NCBI GenBank assembly: GCA_016839445.1
Contig: JAEOUG010000085.1
Span: forward strand, 1 to 12,128
Source: Candidatus Thorarchaeota archaeon
Lineage (GTDB): Archaea; Asgardarchaeota; Thorarchaeia; Thorarchaeales; Thorarchaeaceae
Direction of reading: 5' to 3'
Length of the DNA: 12,128 bases
The translations under genes and the position numbers were made by a program. A model generated the notes under the pieces. That model was not told the DNA's origin, did not search any database, and saw only the letters and a program-made list of their open reading frames with translations. Shown here piece after piece: positions 425 through 12,128 of this stretch. Every line of letters begins with the position of its first letter. Position 1 is the first letter of the stretch.

Positions 425-1051
425 ATGACAGGCTCCAAGAAACCAAGAATCAGGGACATCGAAGTCATTGAAGACAAGAAGATCATCAAACTTCTCATGG
501 AGCCCACACGTGCAAAGATAGTCTTCGACTATCTCGTGAAGGACGCAATGACGGTGAAGCAGCTCTCTGAGGTGACCGGGAAAAACCCAGGGACCATCCT
601 TCACCATGTACAGAAGCTCAAGGATGTTGGCATTGTCTTCGAGGAACGGACAGAACAGACCCAGACTGGTATAGTCCAGAGATACTACCGTGCAACGGCA
701 CGTGAGTTTCGAATGGGCATCAGTGAGATGGTGCAGGCCACTGGGGATGATACTAGAAAACGTCTCAAGTCCATAATTCGTAGCCTCTCAGTCTATGGTA
801 TTGACGTTCCAGAGAGTCAGATTGACGAGGCCATGGGCTTGCTGACCACTATGATTGAGCGTGAGAATGCCATTAGCTCGCGCAGACTCATAGTGGATGA
901 GGACGGCTATGACAAGCTCTCCTCTTCACAACGGGGTGACGCGTCACGCATCATGCGTCGCTTTGCTCTGGAAGAAGATGCAGAATTTCGAGGCCTGAGG
1001 GCGAAATGGCACGATTTTCTCAGGACTCATCTCGCGCGAGGTGCGCAATGA
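425..1051 (+). CDS. ArsR-like winged-helix transcriptional regulator with a C-terminal helical extension
   Basis: 'LMEPTRAKIVFDYL..AMTVKQLSEVTGKNPGTILHHVQKLKDVGIV..GIVQRYYRA' matches the ArsR/HTH_20 pattern. GGAGG at 409-413 precedes the ATG, which is 4 nt after the upstream stop. Confidence 0.88.
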   Translation: MTGSKKPRIRDIEVIEDKKIIKLLMEPTRAKIVFDYLVKDAMTVKQLSEVTGKNPGTILHHVQKLKDVGIVFEERTEQTQTGIVQRYYRATAREFRMGISEMVQATGDDTRKRLKSIIRSLSVYGIDVPESQIDEAMGLLTTMIERENAISSRRLIVDEDGYDKLSSSQRGDASRIMRRFALEEDAEFRGLRAKWHDFLRTHLARGAQ

Positions 1052-1052
1052 A

Positions 1053-1805
1053 ATGAGCAGCTATCAAAGAAACAACACAATGGTCGCCTGTATTTTGAGT
1101 GTCCTGATCGTCGGTGCCATAGCGGTGGGTGCCCTCACATACTACGGAACCACTAGCTGGAACTGGAGTCAGGCCACTACTGATTTCGCCTTCGAGGCGG
1201 AAGTCGGAGCTACCACTGGTACTGTAACACTCGATATCAATGTCGGCGCTGGCGCCGTGGCCGTCACCTTTGTAGACAATGCGACTCTCCTGTACGACAT
1301 TGATGTGGAGGTACTGAACCGAACTGTTGAGGCAGAAGGTGCACCAACGGTCTCTTTCGCTGGTAATGTCATCACCTTCGACTACACTGCAGCAGGAGTG
1401 AATATCACACTGGGCAGCGGAGTCAACTACACTATGAACATTGCCGTAACAAGCGGAGGTCTCGATCTTCACTTTATTGGCGGTGCACACATTGGTGATG
1501 TCAACGCGACAGTGACTGCCGGAGGCATGGGCTTGCTCTTCACAGACGACGTCGTACTCCTGGGGAGTCCAACCTTCGACCTCTATGCCGGAAGTGGCGC
1601 CATGACTCTGAATGTGGGCCTCCCTGCAGGAGTCGGTGGTAGCGTTGAGTGTGCATCGGTACACGGGGGCGTGTACATCACAGCACCTGGTTGGACAGCG
1701 ATAACCTCCAACCACTACGAAACCAGCGACTACGACACTGCTCCACAATCACTCTCTGTCATAGCCCAGACCAGCTCAGGCGCCATCACTGCCACTCTAA
1801 CATAG
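1053..1805 (+). CDS. Membrane-anchored beta-strand repeat protein (toast-rack, DUF4097/LiaG-like)
   Basis: ATG at 1053 is preferred over GTG 1041 because GAGGTG at 1038-1043 is suitably spaced. One N-terminal TM helix is followed by about 6 repeats (LDINVGAGAVAV, NIAVTSGGLDL, NATVTAGGMGL, DLYAGSGAMTL, ECASVHGGVYI, IAQTSSGAITA) and six N-x-S/T sequons. Confidence 0.8.
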   Translation: MSSYQRNNTMVACILSVLIVGAIAVGALTYYGTTSWNWSQATTDFAFEAEVGATTGTVTLDINVGAGAVAVTFVDNATLLYDIDVEVLNRTVEAEGAPTVSFAGNVITFDYTAAGVNITLGSGVNYTMNIAVTSGGLDLHFIGGAHIGDVNATVTAGGMGLLFTDDVVLLGSPTFDLYAGSGAMTLNVGLPAGVGGSVECASVHGGVYITAPGWTAITSNHYETSDYDTAPQSLSVIAQTSSGAITATLT

Positions 1806-1916: not shown

Positions 1917-3287
1917 GTGAGTAATGTGCTTGTCATAGAGTCATCTCTTCTAAACGACGGGTTCCTCATCCGCTTCAGAGGCAATGACTACTCCGTCGCC
2001 TATCCCGAGGGATTCTGGCAGAAGACCCCCGAGAGAACAAGAATCTCCCTGAAGGACAATCTGGCCTTGGCTGCCACGATGCATCTTCCCACAGTCTTCA
2101 ATGAGAAAGACATTCTCTACAAGTCTGGGCGACCTCTCTTGGAGTCGTACTTCGTTGAGAACTTCCTGCGAGACATTCCTTCGTGCACAGAGGTCGACGG
2201 CACCGATACTGCAGAGACCTATCGTGACTTCTTCTTGACGGAGTACAGGTTCGAGGATCCGGTCATCGCACTCCCCTCGAATGATCCCGTGGAGGATGCC
2301 TTCAGGGCTGTCGTAGGGTTGAGTTTTGGCAAAGACAGCCTACTCACGTACGCCGTTGCAGATGAGATTGGTCTTGAGCCAGAGATTGCCTACTTCGTTG
2401 AACACAGCATGACGTATGAAGAGAAGCACAAGACAGCACTTGCTGAGCAGTTCAAGAAGGAATTCGGGAAATCGCTTCATATTGTCAAGCACAGCACCGG
2501 TCTCCTTCGTGACTATGACCATCTCGGACTCCCCTTTTCGGAGTTCGGGTGGGCTCTTCAGAGCACAGAATACGCCCTTGAGATGATCCCCTTCGCCTAC
2601 GGTCTGCAAGGCAAGTATCTACTGTTTGGAAACGAGCAGACAACATCTGCTACATATGTCAACCCCGAGGATGGGTGGCTGGTCTACCCGTGCTTTGATC
2701 AGTCCCACAAGTGGACAGTCCACATAGATCAGATGACTCAGATGCTCTCTGGTCGGTCGGTGAGGACTGCGAGCCTTATTGAACCCCTGATGGACATGAT
2801 GGTTCAGAGGACCCTCGCGAGAAGATACCCCGAGATTGCCAAGTACCAGATGAGCTGCTTCACGCTTTCGGAATCGGGGCGGGACTACAGGTGGTGTCAC
2901 GATTGCAGTGTCTGCGGGAAGATGTACCTTCTCTGTGCTGGGAGTGGCGTAGACCCAAAGAGCGTAGGATTCCTTGAGAACATGCTTGAGCGTAAGCACC
3001 AGCATCACTTCACCCTCTTTGGCGGTAGATCCGAGCTGACTTATGCTAATACACCAACCGCACGAGACGAGCAGCTCTTCGCATTCTACGCGGCGGCGAA
3101 GCGGGGTGCCAAGGGCACTCTTGTTGATGAATTCAGGAAATCAGAGTTATACCAGGAAGCCAAGAATCGAGAGGATGAACTCGTTGAGAAATTCATCAAA
3201 GTCTACGAGCCCATCAGTATTCCGTCAGAGCTGCGTGATCCAGTGATGGCCATATTCAAAGAGGAAGTGGCCTCTTTCGAGCTATAG
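1917..3287 (+). CDS. PP-loop (adenine nucleotide alpha-hydrolase-like) adenylating enzyme with Cys4 cluster; MurL-like ATP-dependent peptidyl epimerase / QueC-related
   Basis: PP-loop variant VVGLSFGKDSLL (S136-S141, nt 2322-2339); LLFGNEQ; DQSHKW; SLIEPL; SC-x12-CxxCxxC (C314, C327, C330, C333). Length 456 aa. Motif order and length fit my recollection of MurL better than the ~220-aa QueC. The CDS is near certain; the family call is moderate. Confidence 0.7.
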   Translation: MSNVLVIESSLLNDGFLIRFRGNDYSVAYPEGFWQKTPERTRISLKDNLALAATMHLPTVFNEKDILYKSGRPLLESYFVENFLRDIPSCTEVDGTDTAETYRDFFLTEYRFEDPVIALPSNDPVEDAFRAVVGLSFGKDSLLTYAVADEIGLEPEIAYFVEHSMTYEEKHKTALAEQFKKEFGKSLHIVKHSTGLLRDYDHLGLPFSEFGWALQSTEYALEMIPFAYGLQGKYLLFGNEQTTSATYVNPEDGWLVYPCFDQSHKWTVHIDQMTQMLSGRSVRTASLIEPLMDMMVQRTLARRYPEIAKYQMSCFTLSESGRDYRWCHDCSVCGKMYLLCAGSGVDPKSVGFLENMLERKHQHHFTLFGGRSELTYANTPTARDEQLFAFYAAAKRGAKGTLVDEFRKSELYQEAKNREDELVEKFIKVYEPISIPSELRDPVMAIFKEEVASFEL

Positions 3288-3316
3288 GGCCTCTGTGCGG
3301 AGTCTGGCCAGTGTGT

Positions 3317-3329
3317 CAAGAATATAAGT
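3317..3329 (+). promoter_or_regulatory. Possible BRE/TATA promoter for the ATP-grasp gene
   Basis: CAAGAATATAAGT, with TATAAG at 3323-3328 about 33 nt upstream of ATG 3361. GGCGTGAA, an SD-like motif, lies just before the start. Confidence 0.45.
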
Positions 3330-3360
3330 GAAGATGCATGAGTGGGTCGGCGTGAATTGA

Positions 3361-4353
3361 ATGCTGGTTGCACTTGTACTGAACACACGTACGGATGAAT
3401 CGGAATTTCAGGTTGAATACGATCCTCCCCACACTATTGAGTTGATTCGACACGGCATAGAAGCTGCTGGACATGAGTATGTCTTCATTGAGGCTGATAT
3501 TCATGTTCTCGAACGGCTACAGGAGGTCCGGCCCGACCTCGTTCTCAACAGGTCTGAGGGCGTTCGTGGAGAGAGTAGAGAGTCACACGTTCCATCCTTT
3601 CTTGAGATGCTTGGGATTCCGTACATTGGTGCCAATGTTCTCACGACCGCTGTCTGTCTGAACAAGGGTTGGACGAAGAAGATACTGGCATACCATGGCA
3701 TTCAGACTCCCCTCTTCCACATCGTCTCTAGCTTGGATGAGGTCCGAGCCTTGGACTTCAGGTTCCCTGTCATTCTCAAGCCAAACGAAGAAGGCTCGTC
3801 CGTTGGTGTCAATGAGGATAATGTTGTACGGAACAGAGACCAGCTTGAGAAGAAGCTCTCGTCAATGCTCAAGGAGTACGAGCAGCCTATTCTTGCAGAA
3901 GGCTTCATCGCAGGACGTGAGTTCAGCGTAGGAATCCTCGGACGCCCTGACGGCCCTCCTGAGGTCCTGCCCATTCTCGAGGTTGACTTCAGCAAGATGC
4001 CTCAAGCCGAAGGGGTCCTTGGCCAGAGAGCCAAGACAATCTATGACGCTCTTGACCACTATGTCTGTCCAGCCCATGTTGACGATGATCTGAAGAAGGA
4101 GGTTGAGCGAATCACACTAGAAGTCTGCAAGCACCTCGAGGTGCGTGACTTTGGTCGAATTGACTTCAGAGTGGATGAGAACAATGAGGTCTTCTTCCTC
4201 GAAATCAACCCGCTCCCTGGCATGGACTTTGATCCCGAAGAGCAGGACATCTCTTTCTATCCATACATGGCCATGCAAGCCGGATACTCCTATGATGAGC
4301 TGATTAGGAGGCTCATCGAGTCAGCTGCGAGCCGCTATGGGCTGTCAGCATAG
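3361..4353 (+). CDS. D-alanine--D-alanine ligase-family ATP-grasp enzyme, non-canonical subfamily
   Basis: LEMLGIPYIGA..CLNKGWTK, FPVILKPNEEGSSVGV, AEGFIAGREFSVG, RDFGRIDFR and FLEINPLPGM are Ddl-type ATP-grasp motifs. The canonical GGxSxEH and LHGxxGEDG motifs are absent; NRSEG..GESRE occupies the latter position. Confidence 0.88.
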   Translation: MLVALVLNTRTDESEFQVEYDPPHTIELIRHGIEAAGHEYVFIEADIHVLERLQEVRPDLVLNRSEGVRGESRESHVPSFLEMLGIPYIGANVLTTAVCLNKGWTKKILAYHGIQTPLFHIVSSLDEVRALDFRFPVILKPNEEGSSVGVNEDNVVRNRDQLEKKLSSMLKEYEQPILAEGFIAGREFSVGILGRPDGPPEVLPILEVDFSKMPQAEGVLGQRAKTIYDALDHYVCPAHVDDDLKKEVERITLEVCKHLEVRDFGRIDFRVDENNEVFFLEINPLPGMDFDPEEQDISFYPYMAMQAGYSYDELIRRLIESAASRYGLSA

Positions 4354-4384
4354 GAACCCAACATGAAGAAGTGGTGCGAGGCTC

Positions 4385-4900
4385 ATGAACAGAATGCGAA
4401 AGGACCCAATCTGGGTGGGTCTAAGGGACGAGCTGACGAAGCTTCTTGGAGTACAGATTGAGCTAGTGTTTCCGGAGGCATGGTCACCCCAGACATCATC
4501 GTGGTTTCGCAACGTTGAGCAGTCTGCCTTTCGTCCCGACCTTCGCTACAGCGAGGAGGAGATTCTGGAACGGCTCGAGATGGATGGAGTACTCCTCGTG
4601 TTCGTTCTGACCGCCAGCATACCGGAAGCCTTCGTACTTGGCTACCACCTAGATGAGCCCAGTGTTGAGACCTTCTACCTTGACACGATAGCTGTAAGGC
4701 AACGCGGACGAGGTGTTGGACCAGCGCTTGTGAGTTGGCTTGGGAAGTGGGCGAAGAAGAATGGATACCAACGAATTGCCTTGGACACGGAGCTCGAGAA
4801 CGAAGTGGGTCTGCGCTTGAGGGACTTCTATCTCAAGATGGGATTCAAGCAGGGTCACGTCGATGAGGTCGGCAACATCTCAATGACTCTAGACCTCTGA
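4385..4900 (+). CDS. GNAT family N-acetyltransferase
   Basis: Motif A 'YLDTIAVRQRGRGVGPAL' (RxxGxG) and motif B 'LRDFYLKMGF'; 171 aa. Alternative start at ATG 4394. Confidence 0.9.
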   Translation: MNRMRKDPIWVGLRDELTKLLGVQIELVFPEAWSPQTSSWFRNVEQSAFRPDLRYSEEEILERLEMDGVLLVFVLTASIPEAFVLGYHLDEPSVETFYLDTIAVRQRGRGVGPALVSWLGKWAKKNGYQRIALDTELENEVGLRLRDFYLKMGFKQGHVDEVGNISMTLDL

Positions 4901-4909
4901 GAGGAGCGT

Positions 4910-5944
4910 CTACTCGAAGTCGCGTCCGGTTAGAACCGCAACAAAGGATCCCTTCATGGTGACCTTGTTGTCCGCCAGGTCGTTCATGACAGCAAGGGTG
5001 CTTGAGGCCGCAGGCAGAACGTACAGGCCCTCTTCGTGCCTCAGCAGCTTGGAGAACTCCCCCATCTTCGCTTCAGAGGCATAGTCCGCGAATCCGTTTG
5101 ACTCATAGAGGGCATCGAGGGCCTCCTGTCCGTCGTAGGCATGCCAGTTTGTGAGGGGTTCATTGAACTTGGTTTCCTTGATCTCGTCTCGACGCAGATC
5201 TTGGACGAACTTGCTCCCCGACTTGAAGGACTTCACTATCGGGTTGCCCCTTCTCGTGCTTGTCGCCACCATCCTCGGCAGCGATGATATCTTCCCAGAT
5301 GTCATGAGCGACTTGAAGCCAAGATGAATACCTGCCAGTGTGGTTCCGTTCCCAACCGGACAGAAAACGAAGCTGGGTGGTCTTCGTATGTCCCGATAGA
5401 TTTCATGTGCAATCTCCCCGTATGCATCCAACGAGATCTGTTTCACACCTTCTGTGCCAGGGTTCGCATCGAACCAGTCCATTTCTACCGCCTGCTCGGA
5501 TGAGTATTCCACGGCGTCCTCGTACTGCCCTGGCACGAAGTGTAGCTCCGCTCCCGCCTCTTTGATGCGCTTCATCCTGTCTTTTGGCACATGGTATCCT
5601 TGGGGGATGAAGATGTGGGCAGGGATCTCAACTATGCGAGATGCCCACGCCAGCGCGGCACCGAAATTGCCACACGATGCAGCAGTGACCGCAGTGGCAC
5701 CGTTCGATTTGGCTGCGTCAACGATGGCCAGTGCAATCCTGTCCTTCTGAGTTCCTGTTGGATTTCCACCTTCGAACTTGAGAAAGAGTCGTTCACAACC
5801 AACATGTCGTGCCAAGTTCCTAGACTCAATGAAGGTTGTTGAGCCGAGGAACTCTCTCCAGTTTATCTTCCCTCCTCGCCTTAGGGAACTTCCATTCTCC
5901 TGTGTCATATGCACATTGCCTTTTGCTGTGTTTCTGTGAGGCAT
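4910..5944 (-). CDS. Fold-type II PLP-dependent enzyme, threonine synthase-like (divergent)
   Basis: LFLKFEGGNPTGTQKDR (Schiff-base Lys), ASCGNFG, PVGNGTTLAG (phosphate loop), PAASS, VLTG. The start may be ATG 5944 or ATG 5908. Confidence 0.88.
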   Translation of the reverse strand: MPHRNTAKGNVHMTQENGSSLRRGGKINWREFLGSTTFIESRNLARHVGCERLFLKFEGGNPTGTQKDRIALAIVDAAKSNGATAVTAASCGNFGAALAWASRIVEIPAHIFIPQGYHVPKDRMKRIKEAGAELHFVPGQYEDAVEYSSEQAVEMDWFDANPGTEGVKQISLDAYGEIAHEIYRDIRRPPSFVFCPVGNGTTLAGIHLGFKSLMTSGKISSLPRMVATSTRRGNPIVKSFKSGSKFVQDLRRDEIKETKFNEPLTNWHAYDGQEALDALYESNGFADYASEAKMGEFSKLLRHEEGLYVLPAASSTLAVMNDLADNKVTMKGSFVAVLTGRDFE

Positions 5945-5997: not shown

Positions 5998-7275
5998 CTA
6001 TAGGCGCTTCATCCTCGCTCTGCACTCAGCCGCTTTGACTGTATCTCCTACCTCGGTGAATAGCCTCTCTGCGACCTGCCATGTCCTCCTTGCGTCGCCT
6101 GGGTGCTCAAGGATTTCTAACATGAGGGCCCTGTAGTAGAGATGCATTGCGTTGTCTGGCTCGACGGAGAATGCAGCATCGAAGTCCTCAAGGGCCTCCT
6201 GGTATCGCTCGAGGGAGTAGAGGATGAGTCCCCGCTGGTGTGCCACATCAGCGTTATCCGGCTGCAGAGCAAGGGCTGTGTTGAGATACTCAAGGGCTGT
6301 GTTCTCATCGTCCAGCAGCAGCATGATGGTCCCGTTCTTCACCCATGCATCCACATGCTCTGGATTCGCGTTGATTGCCTTCTGATATGCGTGGGAGGCC
6401 TGCTGGAATGATTTCAGATGCTTGTGAACATCGCCCTTCTTCACCCAGAGGGCTGGGTCATCGAATTTCACTGAGACAGCACGATCATAGTAGTGCAGTG
6501 CAGTCTCATGTTCCTTTTTATCAACATAGACATCGCCCATGATCGCCAAAGCGTATGGCTGCTCGAGATCAACATTCAGTGCTTTGTTGAGGACCTCGAT
6601 TGCGTCATTATAGCGCTTGGTCTCATGGTATATTCTTCCGAGTTCCACGAGGGCAGGATAGAAGTAGGGGTCTGCTTGAATGGCCCGCTTCAGCCAGGTT
6701 ATTGCTACCTCCTGCTCGCCGAGCGCATGATGATATCTTCCCTTGACCAGAAGAGCTCGGCTGTGATGTTGGTCGAGATGGAGGGCTCTGTCGATGGTAT
6801 CATTGCACGCTCCAAGCTCCAACGTTTCCAGTTGGGCTGAAGCCAGATATGCCAACGCTTCGACGTTGTCTTCATCAATAGCCAAGGCGCTTCCAAGACA
6901 GCTTATCGCCTCCTTCATGGCCTTCATCATTATGTAGGCAATTCCCATGTTGAGCCAGGCGTTGACCTGCCCGCTGTCAATCCCAAGAGAGATCTCGTAG
7001 AGGATGATGCCCCTCCCGAAGTCGGCTTCTTTGAGATGTAAGTCCGCAAGTCGGGTCAAGAGGGCAGGAACTCTCTCATCCTGCTTGATGGAGTCCAGAG
7101 TCATCTGAAGCTCCTTCTCCAAGTCCCCCAGTGCCTGACGCTCTCGTGTCATGATGACGACGGGTTTGATCACCTCTGGCTGGATCTCCGTCGTAGGACT
7201 GAGCCTGATGAGCTTGTTATCAATCTCCTCAAGGAGCTCGTCCACGTTCACGCACGATTCCCAAAACTGATTCAT
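5998..7275 (-). CDS. Tetratricopeptide repeat protein (about 10 TPRs)
   Basis: Repeating 34-aa units such as AWLNMGIAY..EAISCLGSALAID, ALVELGRIY..DAIEVLNKALNVD, LWVKKGDVH..QASHAYQKAINANP and VAHQRGLIL..EALEDFDAAFSVEP. The start is uncertain (TTG 7290, ATG 7275 or GTG 7251). Confidence 0.9.
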   Translation of the reverse strand: MNQFWESCVNVDELLEEIDNKLIRLSPTTEIQPEVIKPVVIMTRERQALGDLEKELQMTLDSIKQDERVPALLTRLADLHLKEADFGRGIILYEISLGIDSGQVNAWLNMGIAYIMMKAMKEAISCLGSALAIDEDNVEALAYLASAQLETLELGACNDTIDRALHLDQHHSRALLVKGRYHHALGEQEVAITWLKRAIQADPYFYPALVELGRIYHETKRYNDAIEVLNKALNVDLEQPYALAIMGDVYVDKKEHETALHYYDRAVSVKFDDPALWVKKGDVHKHLKSFQQASHAYQKAINANPEHVDAWVKNGTIMLLLDDENTALEYLNTALALQPDNADVAHQRGLILYSLERYQEALEDFDAAFSVEPDNAMHLYYRALMLEILEHPGDARRTWQVAERLFTEVGDTVKAAECRARMKRL

Positions 7276-7313
7276 TGCTAATCTTATCAATCTTGGGAGC
7301 TATCCTGACGGCT

Positions 7314-8000
7314 TCATGGTACGTAGAAGATGGCGCTGAGGGCAATGAAGAAAATGGCCAGATAGTAGGTGGCGAGAATGATGACTCCCTCGCCCCGCAT
7401 ACGATGATGAAAGACCGAGATACCAATCACCGAATCCGATGTCACAAAGAGGGCCGCACCAAGCGGGAGTATCCAAGCAAGAGGCACTTCTACGGCAGTG
7501 ACGGCAAGGAGGACAGCAGAGCTCAGTGTCAGCGAAATCACGAAGGCGTAGACCGTGACGGCTGTCAGCATGCTCTTCTCAATGGGTGTTTCTGCCGTCG
7601 AGAGGTAACGTCTGTAGAAGAAGACGTAAACAAGCAGTCCACAGAGACTGAGAACGAAGACTGCCGCAGGGAGAAATGTCAGCCCCACCGCCAGCGTGAG
7701 CTGCAGGAAGTTGACCACAAAGAGAATCTGGGCAACAAGGAAGAGGCCCAGGCCAGGGAGGACGTTGTACTCCATGGCCACATCGCCAAAGGCGCAGAAC
7801 ACGAGAGCACCCGCAAGGAGGTAGTGGTAGAGAAACACACTCGCGGGGAGTGTGATGGCCAGAATAAGTCCAGTGAGAGCAGGCACCATCTTGATGATGG
7901 CCACAATCTCCTTTCGAACCCTATCCTCAGCCACAGCCCTTAGGATGATCGACACAATGGCAAAGGCCCAGAAGACCACTCCGAGAATGACCAGCGACAT
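7314..8000 (-). CDS. YhhN/TMEM86 (lysoplasmalogenase-like) family membrane protein
   Basis: About 8 TM helices with family motifs KMVP, ALVFCAFGDVAM, GLGLFLVAQ, VYAFVI, GAALFVTSDSVIG and LATYYLA. Confidence 0.85.
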   Translation of the reverse strand: MSLVILGVVFWAFAIVSIILRAVAEDRVRKEIVAIIKMVPALTGLILAITLPASVFLYHYLLAGALVFCAFGDVAMEYNVLPGLGLFLVAQILFVVNFLQLTLAVGLTFLPAAVFVLSLCGLLVYVFFYRRYLSTAETPIEKSMLTAVTVYAFVISLTLSSAVLLAVTAVEVPLAWILPLGAALFVTSDSVIGISVFHHRMRGEGVIILATYYLAIFFIALSAIFYVP

Positions 8001-10565: not shown

Positions 10566-10719
10566 GATGCACTTGGCTCTACATCTAGGGCTGTGCCGCT
10601 CAACCCAAGTGACTCACGTGACGCACGGCGAGTTAACTATAGTAGACTGAACCTGCGCGCTCAGTAGGGGATGGAATCGCCGACTACGAAAGCACTCATC
10701 CCAGATTCGACAAACCCTC

Positions 10720-10983
10720 TCACTGATACCCTCGAGACTTGTACGTTTCCTTTCGTAGCAGCAGCGTTCCGCCTACAATCATGACGACAGCTGCTCCTGC
10801 CAGGCCTGCAATGACTGCCAAAGTGGTATCTCCGACACCATCGTCTGTTGGTTCTGGCTCAGGAGGGACGTACTCTGTGGGCCCAGACTGTAGATTCGCC
10901 CCGATCACGATACCTACCACAAGAAACACTGCCGCCACGACAATGTAGCCCCTCATGCGCCGTACGTCCGACTCCACGCTCAT
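10720..10983 (-). CDS. Small hypothetical membrane protein (2 TM helices with Pro/acidic linker)
   Basis: TM1 YIVVAAVFLVVGIVIGA, linker PTEYVPPEPEPTDD, TM2 LAVIAGLAGAAVVMIVGGTLLL and basic tail RKETYKSRGYQ. Possible starts are GTG 10995, ATG 10983 or ATG 10956. A TATA-like GAATCCTTATC lies about 30 nt upstream of 10983. Confidence 0.7.
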   Translation of the reverse strand: MSVESDVRRMRGYIVVAAVFLVVGIVIGANLQSGPTEYVPPEPEPTDDGVGDTTLAVIAGLAGAAVVMIVGGTLLLRKETYKSRGYQ

Positions 10984-11236
10984 CCTCAGGCTCACTACGT
11001 CTCAGAGAGAGATAAGGATTCGTAACGGAGGATGCCCCAGTGGATGCTCCCTGAACCACAGCTGTTGAGTTCCTCAATGGATATTCACTATTGTTACTCG
11101 GTTTCGCCGAGGTGATCTCTGCGGCGTCTAGAAGACCATCCTTTCAAAAAGGAGCCTCTGCGGTTCACGATACTGAACCATACGAACGCGCTTCTGAAAC
11201 TTCACCCTCATCGTATAGGCAGTCCCAATGTTGACG

Positions 11237-11295
11237 GGAGTTCACTTTTCATCTACTATTGTGAACTCCACCTGCATCTTCGAGCCGGACTCGAA
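11237..11295. repeat. Two adjacent inverted repeats
   Basis: GGAGTTCAC (11237-11245) / GTGAACTCC (11261-11269) is a perfect 9-bp repeat with a 15-nt spacer. TTCGAG (11279-11284) / CTCGAA (11290-11295) is a 6-bp repeat with a 5-nt loop. Confidence 0.45.
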
Positions 11296-11342
11296 TAGTG
11301 ACGTCCTTCCTGATGGCAATAATGTGATGCTATTCACTAGGT

Positions 11343-11639
11343 TCAGATTGTACCCGTCGCCACCAGAAGGAGCAACACAGCCAGAGGTATCAGTATAGTC
11401 CCGACAAGCACTGGATACGCCTCCCTGTCGAACTTCCTGAAGGTCCCCACGAAGAAGATTGTGGCGAAGTAGAACATGGCCGCTATCCACGCTGCGACTA
11501 GCCATCTCTCAAGTCCCGGCGGCACTCCTATTAGGGCGAGGACTGGGAAGAGAATCATTGTTGCTATGGCACCAAGGGCCCCATACTTCCTCAAGGGGTC
11601 GATGCTACCTGTCCACGGATCGTGTCCTCGTAGTCCCAC
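11343..11639 (-). CDS. Small hypothetical membrane protein (3 TM helices)
   Basis: Three hydrophobic segments separated by short charged loops. AGGTGA (11650-11645) sits 5 nt before GTG 11639, favouring that start over GTG 11648. Confidence 0.7.
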   Translation of the reverse strand: MGLRGHDPWTGSIDPLRKYGALGAIATMILFPVLALIGVPPGLERWLVAAWIAAMFYFATIFFVGTFRKFDREAYPVLVGTILIPLAVLLLLVATGTI

Positions 11640-11816
11640 GTTCTTCACCTACAATGGATTTCCTCCCTTTGGTCACAAGTTACTCGCGACGCCTCATAAT
11701 GGTTGTGAGTCCTGGCATTCGGACAGCGGGTGGGTCGCCTACCGTTGCTCGCCCGTAGGTGGCTTCGTTCCAATGCGAGCCACTGAAGTGCACTATTGCT
11801 GTCAGCACCTGCCCAT

Positions 11817-11861
11817 CATTTCCATCATGGCAGGCATGGACCGCCATGCCCATGGGAGATG
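11817..11861 (-). other. Stem-loop immediately downstream of the 11869 stop codon (terminator or 3' UTR structure)
   Basis: Perfect core GGCATGG-ACCG-CCATGCC (11833-11850). It extends with bulges through CATG/CATG and CATTTCC/GGAGATG, and begins 7 nt after the TGA. Confidence 0.45.
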
Positions 11862-11868
11862 TGCGGCC

Positions 11869-12128
11869 TCACGCCACGATTCTGACTGGCCTCAGATTGA
11901 CGATCCTGTGCTCACCCTCGGGTGTGTCGTACTCCACCATGCCAACCAGCTCGCCCTCGGCTCCGGGCTGCAGCTCGAAGATGATCTCTGTGACCGACGT
12001 GGAGTCTGGCCCAACGGAGCCCACTGCTGCCGTCTTGATGGTGTCTGTCAGGTCTGGCACACCCAGAATTACCTGCACGTTGGCCATGGGATGCTCGGAG
12101 CCGTTCCGTATCACCACGCCGAAGACAA
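11869..12128 (-). CDS. C-terminal Ig-like beta-sandwich domain of a protein truncated by the window edge
   Basis: The frame is open to the edge (..VFGVVIRNGSEHPMANVQVIL..VGSVGPDSTSVTEIIFELQP..ELVGMVEYDTPEGEHRIV). The VxNxxxxPxxNVxV, lGxlxP and VxYxxxxG patterns fit CARDB/appendage-type Ig folds. Confidence 0.75.
   Translation of the reverse strand, partial: VFGVVIRNGSEHPMANVQVILGVPDLTDTIKTAAVGSVGPDSTSVTEIIFELQPGAEGELVGMVEYDTPEGEHRIVNLRPVRIVA

Follow-up and report, generated by a model that had tools for sequence, protein, structure and literature searches.

A conserved four-gene cassette with relatives of bacterial wall enzymes in a Thorarchaeota genome: a candidate route to a small acetylated peptide

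The window analysed here, a 12,128-nucleotide stretch of a Thorarchaeota contig, harbors three co-oriented genes met by a fourth, convergent one (Table 1). Their coordinates agree exactly with the layout given in the initial annotation: 73 nt separate the PP-loop and ligase genes, 31 nt the ligase and GNAT genes, and 9 nt lie between the facing stops of the GNAT and PLP genes. The window's other ORFs encode an ArsR regulator, a membrane protein, a TPR protein, YhhN and an ABC-2 transporter pair; as had been claimed, Pfam and named-family profile searches reveal no mur, dcw, que or thr genes among them, and neither tRNA nor Rfam RNA was found in the window. The nearest homologues and the syntenic contigs come from Thorarchaeota MAGs, so that the host, earlier described as apparently archaeal, is indeed archaeal. 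It is thus not the peptidoglycan-making bacterium whose presence would have spoken against a separate pathway: its 89.8%-complete genome shows no Mur_ligase_M domain, which speaks against a role of the cassette in peptidoglycan, and a search of it for an alanine racemase N-domain was likewise negative.

Table 1. Genes of the cassette and their positions in the window
Gene	Coordinates	Strand	Product length	Assignment
MurL-like PP-loop gene	1917-3287	+	456 aa, GTG start	putative ATP-dependent carboxylate-adenylating enzyme
Ddl-family ATP-grasp amide ligase gene	3361-4353	+	330 aa	non-canonical substrate pocket
GNAT-family acetyltransferase gene	4385-4900	+	171 aa	presumed N-acetylating step
Fold-type II PLP enzyme gene	4910-5944	-	344 aa	NF004996 (PRK06381) branch, threonine-synthase superfamily

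Across 80 related genome loci, collected via the PP-loop protein, the only gene families that recur are the four of the cassette (78/80, 75/80, 72/80 and 69/80), and tblastn detects the Ddl-like gene in 77, the GNAT gene in 75 and the PLP gene in 72. Most tblastn misses are contigs that break off within the cassette or next to it (L045, L076, L078, L005, L054, L058, L059 and L073); the genuine ones are a locus with no PLP gene within 6 kb (L013) and another with no GNAT of the cassette's family (L048). The association of the four genes is far beyond chance. Carriers comprise Asgard lineages, Bathyarchaeia, one Nitrososphaeria MAG and Spirochaetes, with the four proteins 46-81% identical across phyla, and the co-location across genera that had been put forward as a sign of a pathway therefore extends to several phyla and to four gene orders: three among the 63 loci where every cassette gene was called (38, 10 and 15 loci) and a fourth in divergent cassettes, where the PP-loop protein is only 38-39% identical. 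The GNAT gene follows the ligase gene in 75 of the 80 loci, and the two form a single polypeptide in three (L046, L047 and L049); the PLP gene adjoins the triad in 72, at any of three positions, and occupies a fourth in the divergent cassettes. Neighbouring genes of the Spirochaete operons overlap at their start and stop codons. Phylogenies of the cassette genes agree with one another, the major PP-loop clades recurring in the Ddl-like and PLP trees (Jaccard 0.74-1.00). Occurrence is nonetheless patchy: the cassette is present in 36 of 301 Asgard genomes, in 9 of the 90 of high quality and in 11 of the 24 from the host's own genus, and the product is therefore dispensable. In sum, the cassette is tightly conserved, horizontally mobile and accessory. 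In a peptidoglycan-making Spirochaete carrier it stands apart from bona fide wall genes, lying at 1.13 Mb, while a canonical Ddl gene adjoins a Mur ligase gene at 3.93 Mb. Our search of the literature found no publication on the four-gene cassette.

The PP-loop protein has no Pfam match, to QueC and glutaminase domains included, and the sole named family that it matches is NF041275 (MurL_Xanthomonadales), at 22 bits and E 5e-5 against a cut-off of 700; the same model is matched by 12 of 20 representatives of its family. HHalign of this family against MurD-adjacent MurL orthologues (99.2%, E 1e-19, residues 93-441) extends the relationship over the PP-loop, the N-E motif, the S-C plus W-C-x2-C-x2-C cluster and the C-terminal domain, and the previously suggested kinship with MurL is upheld in that, judged by sequence, the protein is a true but remote homologue. 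Residues 1-92 do not align with MurL, and the N-terminal domain modelled alone has no clear structural relative, displaying weak RNase-H-like topology (Z ≤ 5.6); the substrate handle therefore differs from that of MurL. The AF2 model (pLDDT 95.7) resolves an N-domain (1 to about 125), a QueC-like PP-loop core with a Cys4 cluster (about 128-347) and a helical C-terminal domain. QueC, Cap9 and QatC are the best structural matches to residues 128-347: VIA returns QueC (3bl5_A, Z 14.8, rmsd 3.0, 191 aligned) and Cap9 (9nto_B, Z 14.6) for the core, and QatC (9y02_B, E 3.4e-5) is the best Foldseek match of the protein. Carboxylate activation is the chemistry of enzymes with the QueC/Cap9 fold, and PP-loop enzymes of the QueC and asparagine-synthetase types carry out amidation or nitrile formation. 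Unlike QueC, Cap9 and QatC, however, the cassette protein has extra N- and C-terminal domains, and no que genes or defence partners accompany it. It carries the PP-loop variant S-F-G-K-D-S and an invariant Cys4 cluster (C314, C327, C330 and C333), with G138, C314, C327 and C330 invariant across 76 family members. The pattern C-x12-C-x2-C-x2-C resembles the zinc site of QueC, and a structural Zn site like that of QueC is the likeliest role of the cluster.

The ligase shares family and fold with DdlB and the Van ligases (Dala_Dala_lig_C, 119.5 bits) but falls below every Ddl and Van model cut-off, including those of the Ddl equivalog and subfamily models (177.5 vs. 243 and 162.3 vs. 245.65). In an alignment of 55 sequences, numbered by E. 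coli DdlB, it keeps every Ddl ATP, Mg and catalytic residue (K97, K144, S150, S151, E180, E187, K215, R255, D257, E270, N272, G276 and S281, each 55/55). The pocket is altered, in contrast, with H63 replaced by E (55/55), Y216 by T (51/55) and L282 by F (55/55), and with an 8-residue insert preceding S281; together with the scores, these replacements substantiate the earlier description of a non-canonical Ddl-like enzyme. The ligase belongs to the small-molecule Ddl branch, and in its longer relatives it is joined to an M20 peptidase, a radical-SAM aminomutase-like or a methyltransferase domain. The GNAT matches Acetyltransf_1 (31.8 bits, cut-off 20.7), and named GNAT subfamilies and PDB sequences weakly. 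The PLP enzyme matches PALP (173 bits) and carries the lysine motif NPTGTqKDR; it scores 357 bits against NF004996 (cut-off 266), a model exceeded in 0 of 14 model genomes, but only 75.8 against TIGR00260 thrC (cut-off 167.1). Its Asn loop reads CGNfG rather than STGNT, and the NSVNPxRxEGQKT block common to four solved ThrCs is missing, so that with its subthreshold score a canonical threonine synthase is excluded. Two further ThrC paralogues, above the NF006050 cut-off, are present in the host genome.

The homology, conserved catalytic residues, linkage, fusion and co-inheritance described above frame a proposal for substrates, order of steps, epimerisation and physiological role, all of which we infer. 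We tentatively suggest, with less than even confidence, that the four genes form a self-contained, horizontally mobile cassette that turns amino acids into a small peptide-like metabolite bearing an N-acetyl group, a dipeptide being the likeliest form. Judging from family chemistry, the threonine-synthase-like PLP enzyme would provide a non-standard or re-configured amino acid, and the Ddl-like ATP-grasp enzyme would make an amide bond via an acyl phosphate. The GNAT would acetylate the free amino group, working jointly with the ligase much as the two activities are combined in bifunctional Ngg of NAGGN synthesis. The MurL-like PP-loop enzyme would adenylate the terminal alpha-carboxylate (ATP to AMP and PPi) and then convert the terminal residue from L to D, as does MurL, which passages of two reports describe as ATP- and Mg-dependent, forming AMP and epimerising a peptide's C-terminal L-Glu in the L-to-D direction only (PMC5808125, PMC8788868). 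The sequence of events first proposed, from an unusual amino acid through ligation and epimerisation to D to an acetyl cap, is consistent with all the data. The cassette thus places relatives of bacterial wall enzymes in an Asgard archaeon devoid of cell-wall peptide ligases, where what they would most likely build is a small acetylated peptide.

The fate of the adenylated C-terminal carboxylate is where an otherwise identical scheme could diverge, with the PP-loop enzyme amidating it or making a nitrile. QueC, which has the closest core fold, itself takes a carboxylate to an amide and on to a nitrile. The resulting N-acetyl-peptide amide would recall the osmoprotectant NAGGN, N-acetylglutaminylglutamine amide (Sinorhizobium meliloti; Pseudomonas aeruginosa PA3459-PA3460), for which excerpts of one study describe the same three enzyme types, an acetyltransferase, a peptide ligase and a PP-loop enzyme activating the C-terminal carboxylate, yielding an N-acetyl dipeptide derivative: Ngg is responsible for both the N-acetylation and the peptide bond, after which AsnO amidates residue two (PMC8070244). 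The ligase/GNAT fusions mirror Ngg, the patchy, accessory occurrence in sediment organisms suits a compatible solute, and part of another report has an asparagine-synthetase-like enzyme making a peptide C-terminal nitrile (PMC13060819). The likeness is one of analogy, however. AsnO is of the asparagine-synthetase type and the cassette enzyme of the MurL/QueC type; the latter lacks a glutaminase domain, NAGGN synthesis involves no PLP enzyme, and the one named family that the whole PP-loop family matches by sequence is an epimerase. Some carrier genomes derive from peat, permafrost or freshwater (record titles), which weakens a purely osmotic role. We regard amidation or nitrile formation as a serious alternative, though a less likely one than epimerisation. 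More doubtful is a toxic "Trojan-horse" dipeptide antimetabolite. Such dipeptides are known products of ATP-grasp ligases, and in known clusters the producers are protected by GNATs or target paralogues (bacilysin, tabtoxin, rhizocticin); likewise the cassette GNAT could serve self-protection and the PLP enzyme could be a resistance or supply paralogue instead of pathway steps, with export by the efflux-type MFS transporters whose genes adjoin the cassette in seven loci. An accessory, mobile cassette would suit this role, yet no warhead-forming enzyme is conserved with it across the 80 loci, the identity across phyla is unusual for arms-race metabolites, and the ligase-fused GNAT favours a role within the pathway.

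The substrate might instead be a protein or a ribosomal peptide whose gene lies elsewhere, receiving a C-terminal amino acid (RimK/TTL-like) before activation, or undergoing QatC/Cap9-like conjugation at its terminus. Some ATP-grasp enzymes do extend protein C-termini, and QatC, the nearest full-length Foldseek match, is reported in part of one study to heterodimerise with QatB, its suggested substrate (PMC13376578). Against this, which we hold to be equally improbable, the 80-locus set shows no small ORF or partner gene conserved next to the cassette, arguing for a small-molecule rather than a ribosomal-peptide substrate; PADLOC finds no defence-family matches, and the ligase, of the small-molecule Ddl branch, has longer relatives fused to amino-acid-metabolising domains. 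The accessory neighbours, for their part, point to N-acyl or D-amino-acid peptides: an enolase-superfamily racemase-like gene in eight loci (the Heimdall copy exceeding the TIGR01928 cut-off), a beta-lactamase/D-aminopeptidase-family gene within the Heimdall cassette, an Amidohydro_3 gene in 10 Bathyarchaeia loci and the divergent Asgard locus L102, and a gamma-glutamylcyclotransferase-like gene 3' of the GNAT gene in 11. The MFS transporter genes in seven loci fit the same picture. Being lineage-specific (8-11 of 80 loci), the accessory neighbours could, however, owe their presence to common descent rather than function. Their D-stereospecific peptidase-like, N-acyl-amino-acid racemase-like and hydrolytic functions, in hosts that are sediment heterotrophs by their record titles, would also suit salvage or catabolism of D-amino acids or wall-derived peptides from necromass. 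We rate this as the least probable reading, as two of the enzymes spend ATP on bond formation or activation, an anabolic trait, and the hydrolytic genes are lineage-specific additions outside the conserved core.

For the proposed acetylated and epimerised peptide, the MurD2/MurL pair of the alternative peptidoglycan pathway (Xanthomonas oryzae XOO_1320/XOO_1319) offers a parallel, likewise joining an amide ligase to a MurL-family ATP-dependent enzyme. The cassette differs from it in that its ligase is a Ddl-type ATP-grasp enzyme and not a Mur ligase, and in the addition of the GNAT and the PLP enzyme; and whereas its host lacks a Mur-ligase domain, a murD-type gene adjoins MurL in four of five fetched MurL loci.

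The four genes lie exactly where the initial annotation had placed them, and the ORF calls reproduce its gaps of 73 and 31 nt as well as the 9 nt separating the convergent stops. All four are single-copy in the host genome (2.9 Mb, completeness 89.8%, contamination 6.45%). The flanking genes of the window are syntenic with Thorarchaeota MAG contigs, and among the best 120 of 469 matches the proteins nearest to the PP-loop protein, at 57-94% identity, come from Thor-, Hermod-, Odin-, Hod- and Promethearchaeota and from Bathyarchaeota. Pfam and NCBIfam assign the other window genes to an ArsR regulator, a membrane protein, a TPR protein, a YhhN protein and an ABC-2 transporter pair, and no tRNA or Rfam RNA was found within the 12,128-bp window, which is an entire contig.

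Coordinates of the cassette genes, of neighboring features in the window and of lineage-specific extras beside the cassette in three homologous loci
Feature	Position	Strand	Length	Remarks
PP-loop (MurL-like) ORF	1917-3287	+	456 aa	no Pfam family; 22-bit NCBIfam MurL match
Ddl-type ATP-grasp ORF	3361-4353	+	330 aa	Pfam/NCBIfam
GNAT ORF	4385-4900	+	171 aa	Pfam/NCBIfam
Fold-II PLP enzyme ORF	4910-5944	-	344 aa	Pfam/NCBIfam
ArsR-family HTH regulator	425-1051			11-nt overlap with next ORF
Membrane/secreted protein	1041-1805		254 aa	C-terminal end weakly LiaF-like
TPR protein	5998-7290	-	430 aa	follows PLP gene along the window
YhhN-family membrane protein	7314-8000	-		follows PLP gene along the window
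Last 1.5 kb of window	10566-12128			no family match
3'-open ORF	11476-12126			within the last 1.5 kb
Extras, locus L040	8997-11274
Extras, locus L055	8998-12967
Extras, locus L102	11050-13737

Scanning prokaryotes at one genome per species yielded 87 relatives of the PP-loop protein, and 80 of their loci were retained; these are labelled Thor-, Hermod-, Hod-, Heimdall- and Borrarchaeota, Bathyarchaeia (34), Nitrososphaeria (1) and Spirochaetes (7), plus three MAGs of doubtful assignment. By tblastn, the Ddl-like ligase, GNAT and PLP enzyme are detected in 77, 75 and 72 of the 80 loci, respectively, with absences falling mostly at contig ends, one locus (L013) lacking the PLP gene and another (L048) this GNAT. 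When 2,212 ORFs were clustered all against all, only these four families were present in most loci (78, 75, 72 and 69 of 80), and the next true gene family reaches 18. Where all four genes were called, 38 of 63 loci keep the PP-Ddl-GNAT order followed by a convergent PLP gene, while the latter lies upstream on the same strand in 10 and upstream and divergent in 15; a fourth order, PP-PLP-Ddl-GNAT, occurs in two Asgard genomes of another family whose PP-loop protein is 38-39% identical. The four genes overlap start-to-stop in the Spirochaete cassettes, and in L046, L047 and L049 the ligase and GNAT are merged into a single ORF bearing both Pfam domains. The three larger proteins give FastTree trees whose major groups recur with Jaccard indices of 0.74-1.00, the 'extras' being loci that a length filter had dropped from the PP set. 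Bathyarchaeia fall into two distant clades and the Spirochaetes into one clade within archaeal diversity, and the cassette is therefore transferred as a whole. Conservation, four gene orders, ligase-GNAT fusion and congruent trees rule out chance adjacency; together, these data show the four enzymes to be a conserved and mobile unit.

As for the doubtful MAGs, the 'Actinomycetota' locus L028 is near-identical to the Bathyarchaeota locus L027, and in the gene trees L072, labelled 'Patescibacteria', falls within Bathyarchaeia and L050, labelled 'Rickettsiales', within Spirochaetes. Their labels are probably wrong, and the mismatch could stem from mis-binning or very recent transfer.

The PP-loop family is small: of 1.84 billion representatives, 302 match at E <= 1e-3. 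Its more distant members are labelled Nanoarchaeia and Paceibacterota. Its gene is present in 36 of 301 genomes searched in the Asgard phylum (9 of 90 high-quality ones) and in 11 of 24 genomes of the host's genus, several congeners of at least 93% completeness being without it. The cassette is an accessory trait.

Neither QueC PF06508 nor any other Pfam family matches the PP-loop protein even at E 10, a PDB sequence search gave no match at E <= 1, and the MurL model (NCBIfam NF041275) scores far below its cut-off (22 vs. 700 bits, E 5e-5); 12 of 20 family representatives match that model, with a top score of 37.5 bits. For comparison, MurL-type genes occur in 14 of 251 genomes of one bacterial class with scores of 300-482 bits, and a murD-type ligase gene adjoins MurL in four of the five such loci examined. 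A profile built from these genes aligns with the window family by HHalign at 99.2% probability (E 1e-19, 330 columns, query residues 93-441), making the PP-loop core, Cys cluster and C-terminal domain homologous to MurL and leaving the N-terminal ~92 residues unaligned. Common to both is the PP-loop, together with an N-E motif, the stretch S-x-[IL]-x-P-L and an S-C plus W-C-x2-C-x2-C cluster. Twenty close homologues share S-F-G-K-D-S, C90, C314, C327, C330 and C333, and G138, C314, C327 and C330 are invariant in 76 members down to 22% identity. Neighboring clusters in the ESM Atlas bear the Pfam names MurL_N and MurL_epimerase_C.

In the AF2 model (pLDDT 95.7, pTM 0.94), residues 128-347 superpose on QueC (Z 14.8, rmsd 3.0, 191 residues) and on Cap9 (Z 14.6, rmsd 2.3, 175 residues), both well above the lower-ranked matches; Foldseek ranks QatC at the top (E 3.4e-5). 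With zero PADLOC matches at E <= 0.01 for the four cassette proteins, a QatABCD or type IV CBASS defence system was rejected. The N-terminal domain modelled alone (pLDDT 94.1) gave weak matches of RNase-H-like topology (best VIA Z 5.6, rmsd 3.7, 86 aligned; best Foldseek E 6e-3), neither of which provides a convincing structural relative.

The ligase scores under the cut-off of every Ddl and Van model, including TIGR01205 (162.3 vs. 245.65) and NF002378 (177.5 vs. 243). In an alignment of the window protein and 54 orthologues against E. coli DdlB, the 13 positions for ATP, Mg and catalysis are invariant in 55/55 sequences. The residues of the D-Ala pocket are replaced (H63 by E in 55/55, Y216 by T in 51/55, L282 by F in 55/55), and an 8-residue insert precedes S281. 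A canonical Ddl is ruled out by cut-offs and motif residues. Longer relatives, at 33-39% identity, carry fusions to a second ATP-grasp domain, M20 peptidases (in Nitrosopumilaceae), a lysine-aminomutase-like radical-SAM/LAM_C module or methyltransferases; these fusions fit a clade of small-molecule amino-acid ligases, and the relatives look like a wider uncharacterised clade of that kind. The GNAT passes the PF00583 gathering cut-off (31.8 vs. 20.7 bits).

The PLP enzyme passes NF004996 (PRK06381; 357.1 bits vs. a cut-off of 266), whose 'threonine synthase' label is an annotation rather than a tested function and whose cut-off is exceeded in none of 14 model genomes, and misses TIGR00260 thrC (75.8 vs. 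167.1). Its PLP lysine is conserved, and in 66 cassette proteins the STGNT and NSVNPxRxEGQKT motifs common to four solved ThrCs are replaced by CGNfG and another conserved block, ANPG...sl.aY. Cut-off and motif replacement rule out a canonical ThrC. The host encodes two further ThrC paralogues above the NF006050 cut-off, and the ESM Atlas places the enzyme in generic 'threonine synthase/PALP' clusters only.

A role in peptidoglycan or pseudomurein synthesis in the host was rejected, no Mur_ligase_M domain having been found in the 89.8%-complete genome; an alanine-racemase N-domain was not found there either, and two Asp/Glu-racemase-family genes were. Bacterial carriers of the cassette do possess Mur ligases: one complete chromosome, from a Spirochaete, has a canonical Ddl (282 vs. 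245.65 bits) adjoining a Mur ligase at 3.93 Mb and the ligase of the cassette (146 bits) at 1.13 Mb. Accessory genes nearby include a gamma-glutamylcyclotransferase-like gene after the GNAT in 11 Bathyarchaeia loci, Amidohydro_3 in 10 of those and also in L102, the divergent Asgard locus, an enolase-superfamily gene in eight loci and MFS transporters in seven. In the Heimdall locus, two genes sit between GNAT and PLP: one TIGR01928-positive and of OSBS/N-acyl-amino-acid-racemase type, the other of the beta-lactamase/D-aminopeptidase family. Lineage-specific and outside the cassette core, these genes give hints of N-acyl or D-amino-acid peptide chemistry. The extras in L040, L055 and L102 comprise beta-lactamase/D-aminopeptidase-family, enolase-superfamily racemase-like, Amidohydro_3, AIG2/gamma-glutamylcyclotransferase-like and second GNAT genes, and may constitute a turnover branch for the cassette product.

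According to two papers (PMC5808125, PMC8788868), MurL is an ATP- and Mg-dependent enzyme that releases AMP while converting terminal L-Glu to D-Glu one way, for which adenylation of the alpha-carboxylate has been proposed; it is known so far only from the peptidoglycan synthesis of a few bacterial groups, with its mechanism unresolved. On the scheme that family chemistry suggests and that we tentatively prefer, giving it not quite an even chance, the PLP enzyme would supply a special amino acid, the ATP-grasp enzyme would form an amide bond, the GNAT would N-acetylate in concert with the ligase, and the MurL-like enzyme would adenylate the terminal carboxylate and then epimerise the residue as MurL does. 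PMC8070244 describes how acetylation and peptide ligation are joined in bifunctional Ngg of the NAGGN pathway; the single ORFs with both Pfam domains resemble it, whereas the window ligase and GNAT are separate adjacent genes. The partner of the MurL-like enzyme differs from that of MurL, being a Ddl-like ATP-grasp enzyme rather than a MurD2-type Mur ligase.

An amide variant, in which the PP-loop enzyme amidates or forms a nitrile as AsnO- or QueC-type enzymes do, has precedent in PMC13060819, and we consider it unlikely. With QueC the protein has the fold alone in common (Z 14.8), without sequence-level membership; unlike AsnO of the NAGGN pathway it belongs to no Pfam family and so has no glutaminase domain match. 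We give less weight still to readings in which the product is an antimetabolite with self-protection, the enzymes modify a protein, or the cassette serves salvage. No small ORF conserved across lineages was found beside the cassette, the largest such families (14 and 9 loci) being Thor-specific and mapping to the downstream stretch antisense to the TPR gene, and a RiPP precursor or carrier protein was rejected on this ground.

It is possible, at appreciably less than an even chance, that MurL-type ATP-dependent epimerases of peptides also act beyond peptidoglycan, in a role both older and wider, with the dedicated four-enzyme cassette making a new D-residue N-acetyl peptide in Asgard archaea, Bathyarchaeia, Spirochaetes and DPANN/CPR relatives. 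That peptide could be a compatible solute, signal or antimetabolite of anoxic sediments, and no dedicated non-ribosomal route to a D-peptide would have been described before it for Asgard archaea. In the cassette, the deepest and most conserved branch of the MurL family occurs in wall-less archaea alongside a different partner ligase. The high-confidence model (pLDDT 95.7) places MurL-type enzymes in the QueC/Cap9 fold, and the compact, expressible four-gene system offers a route to their general function, pointing to a metabolite common to abundant, uncultured sediment lineages. Full-text literature searches turned up no description of the cassette, and a 2009 amidoligase survey (Iyer and colleagues) may contain a prior prediction; the enzymes come from known superfamilies, and their combination, host range and product are undescribed.

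Several features surround the cassette in particular lineages. The overlapping ArsR and 254-aa genes lie upstream in 14-16 Thorarchaeota-type loci at varying distance, and may act as a local cassette regulator. The TPR protein occurs in 18 and the YhhN protein in 10 Thor-type loci, both confined to that lineage, and the 3'-open ORF at the window's end has weak relatives in nine (26-48% across about 80 aa). In seven loci of a Bathyarchaeia clade (L017, L027, L028, L032, L033, L039 and L077), an ORF of 38-40 aa with the pattern CxxC...CC lies immediately upstream of the PP-loop gene, at a distance of about 50-180 nt, and resembles a desulforedoxin-type metal-binding mini-protein.
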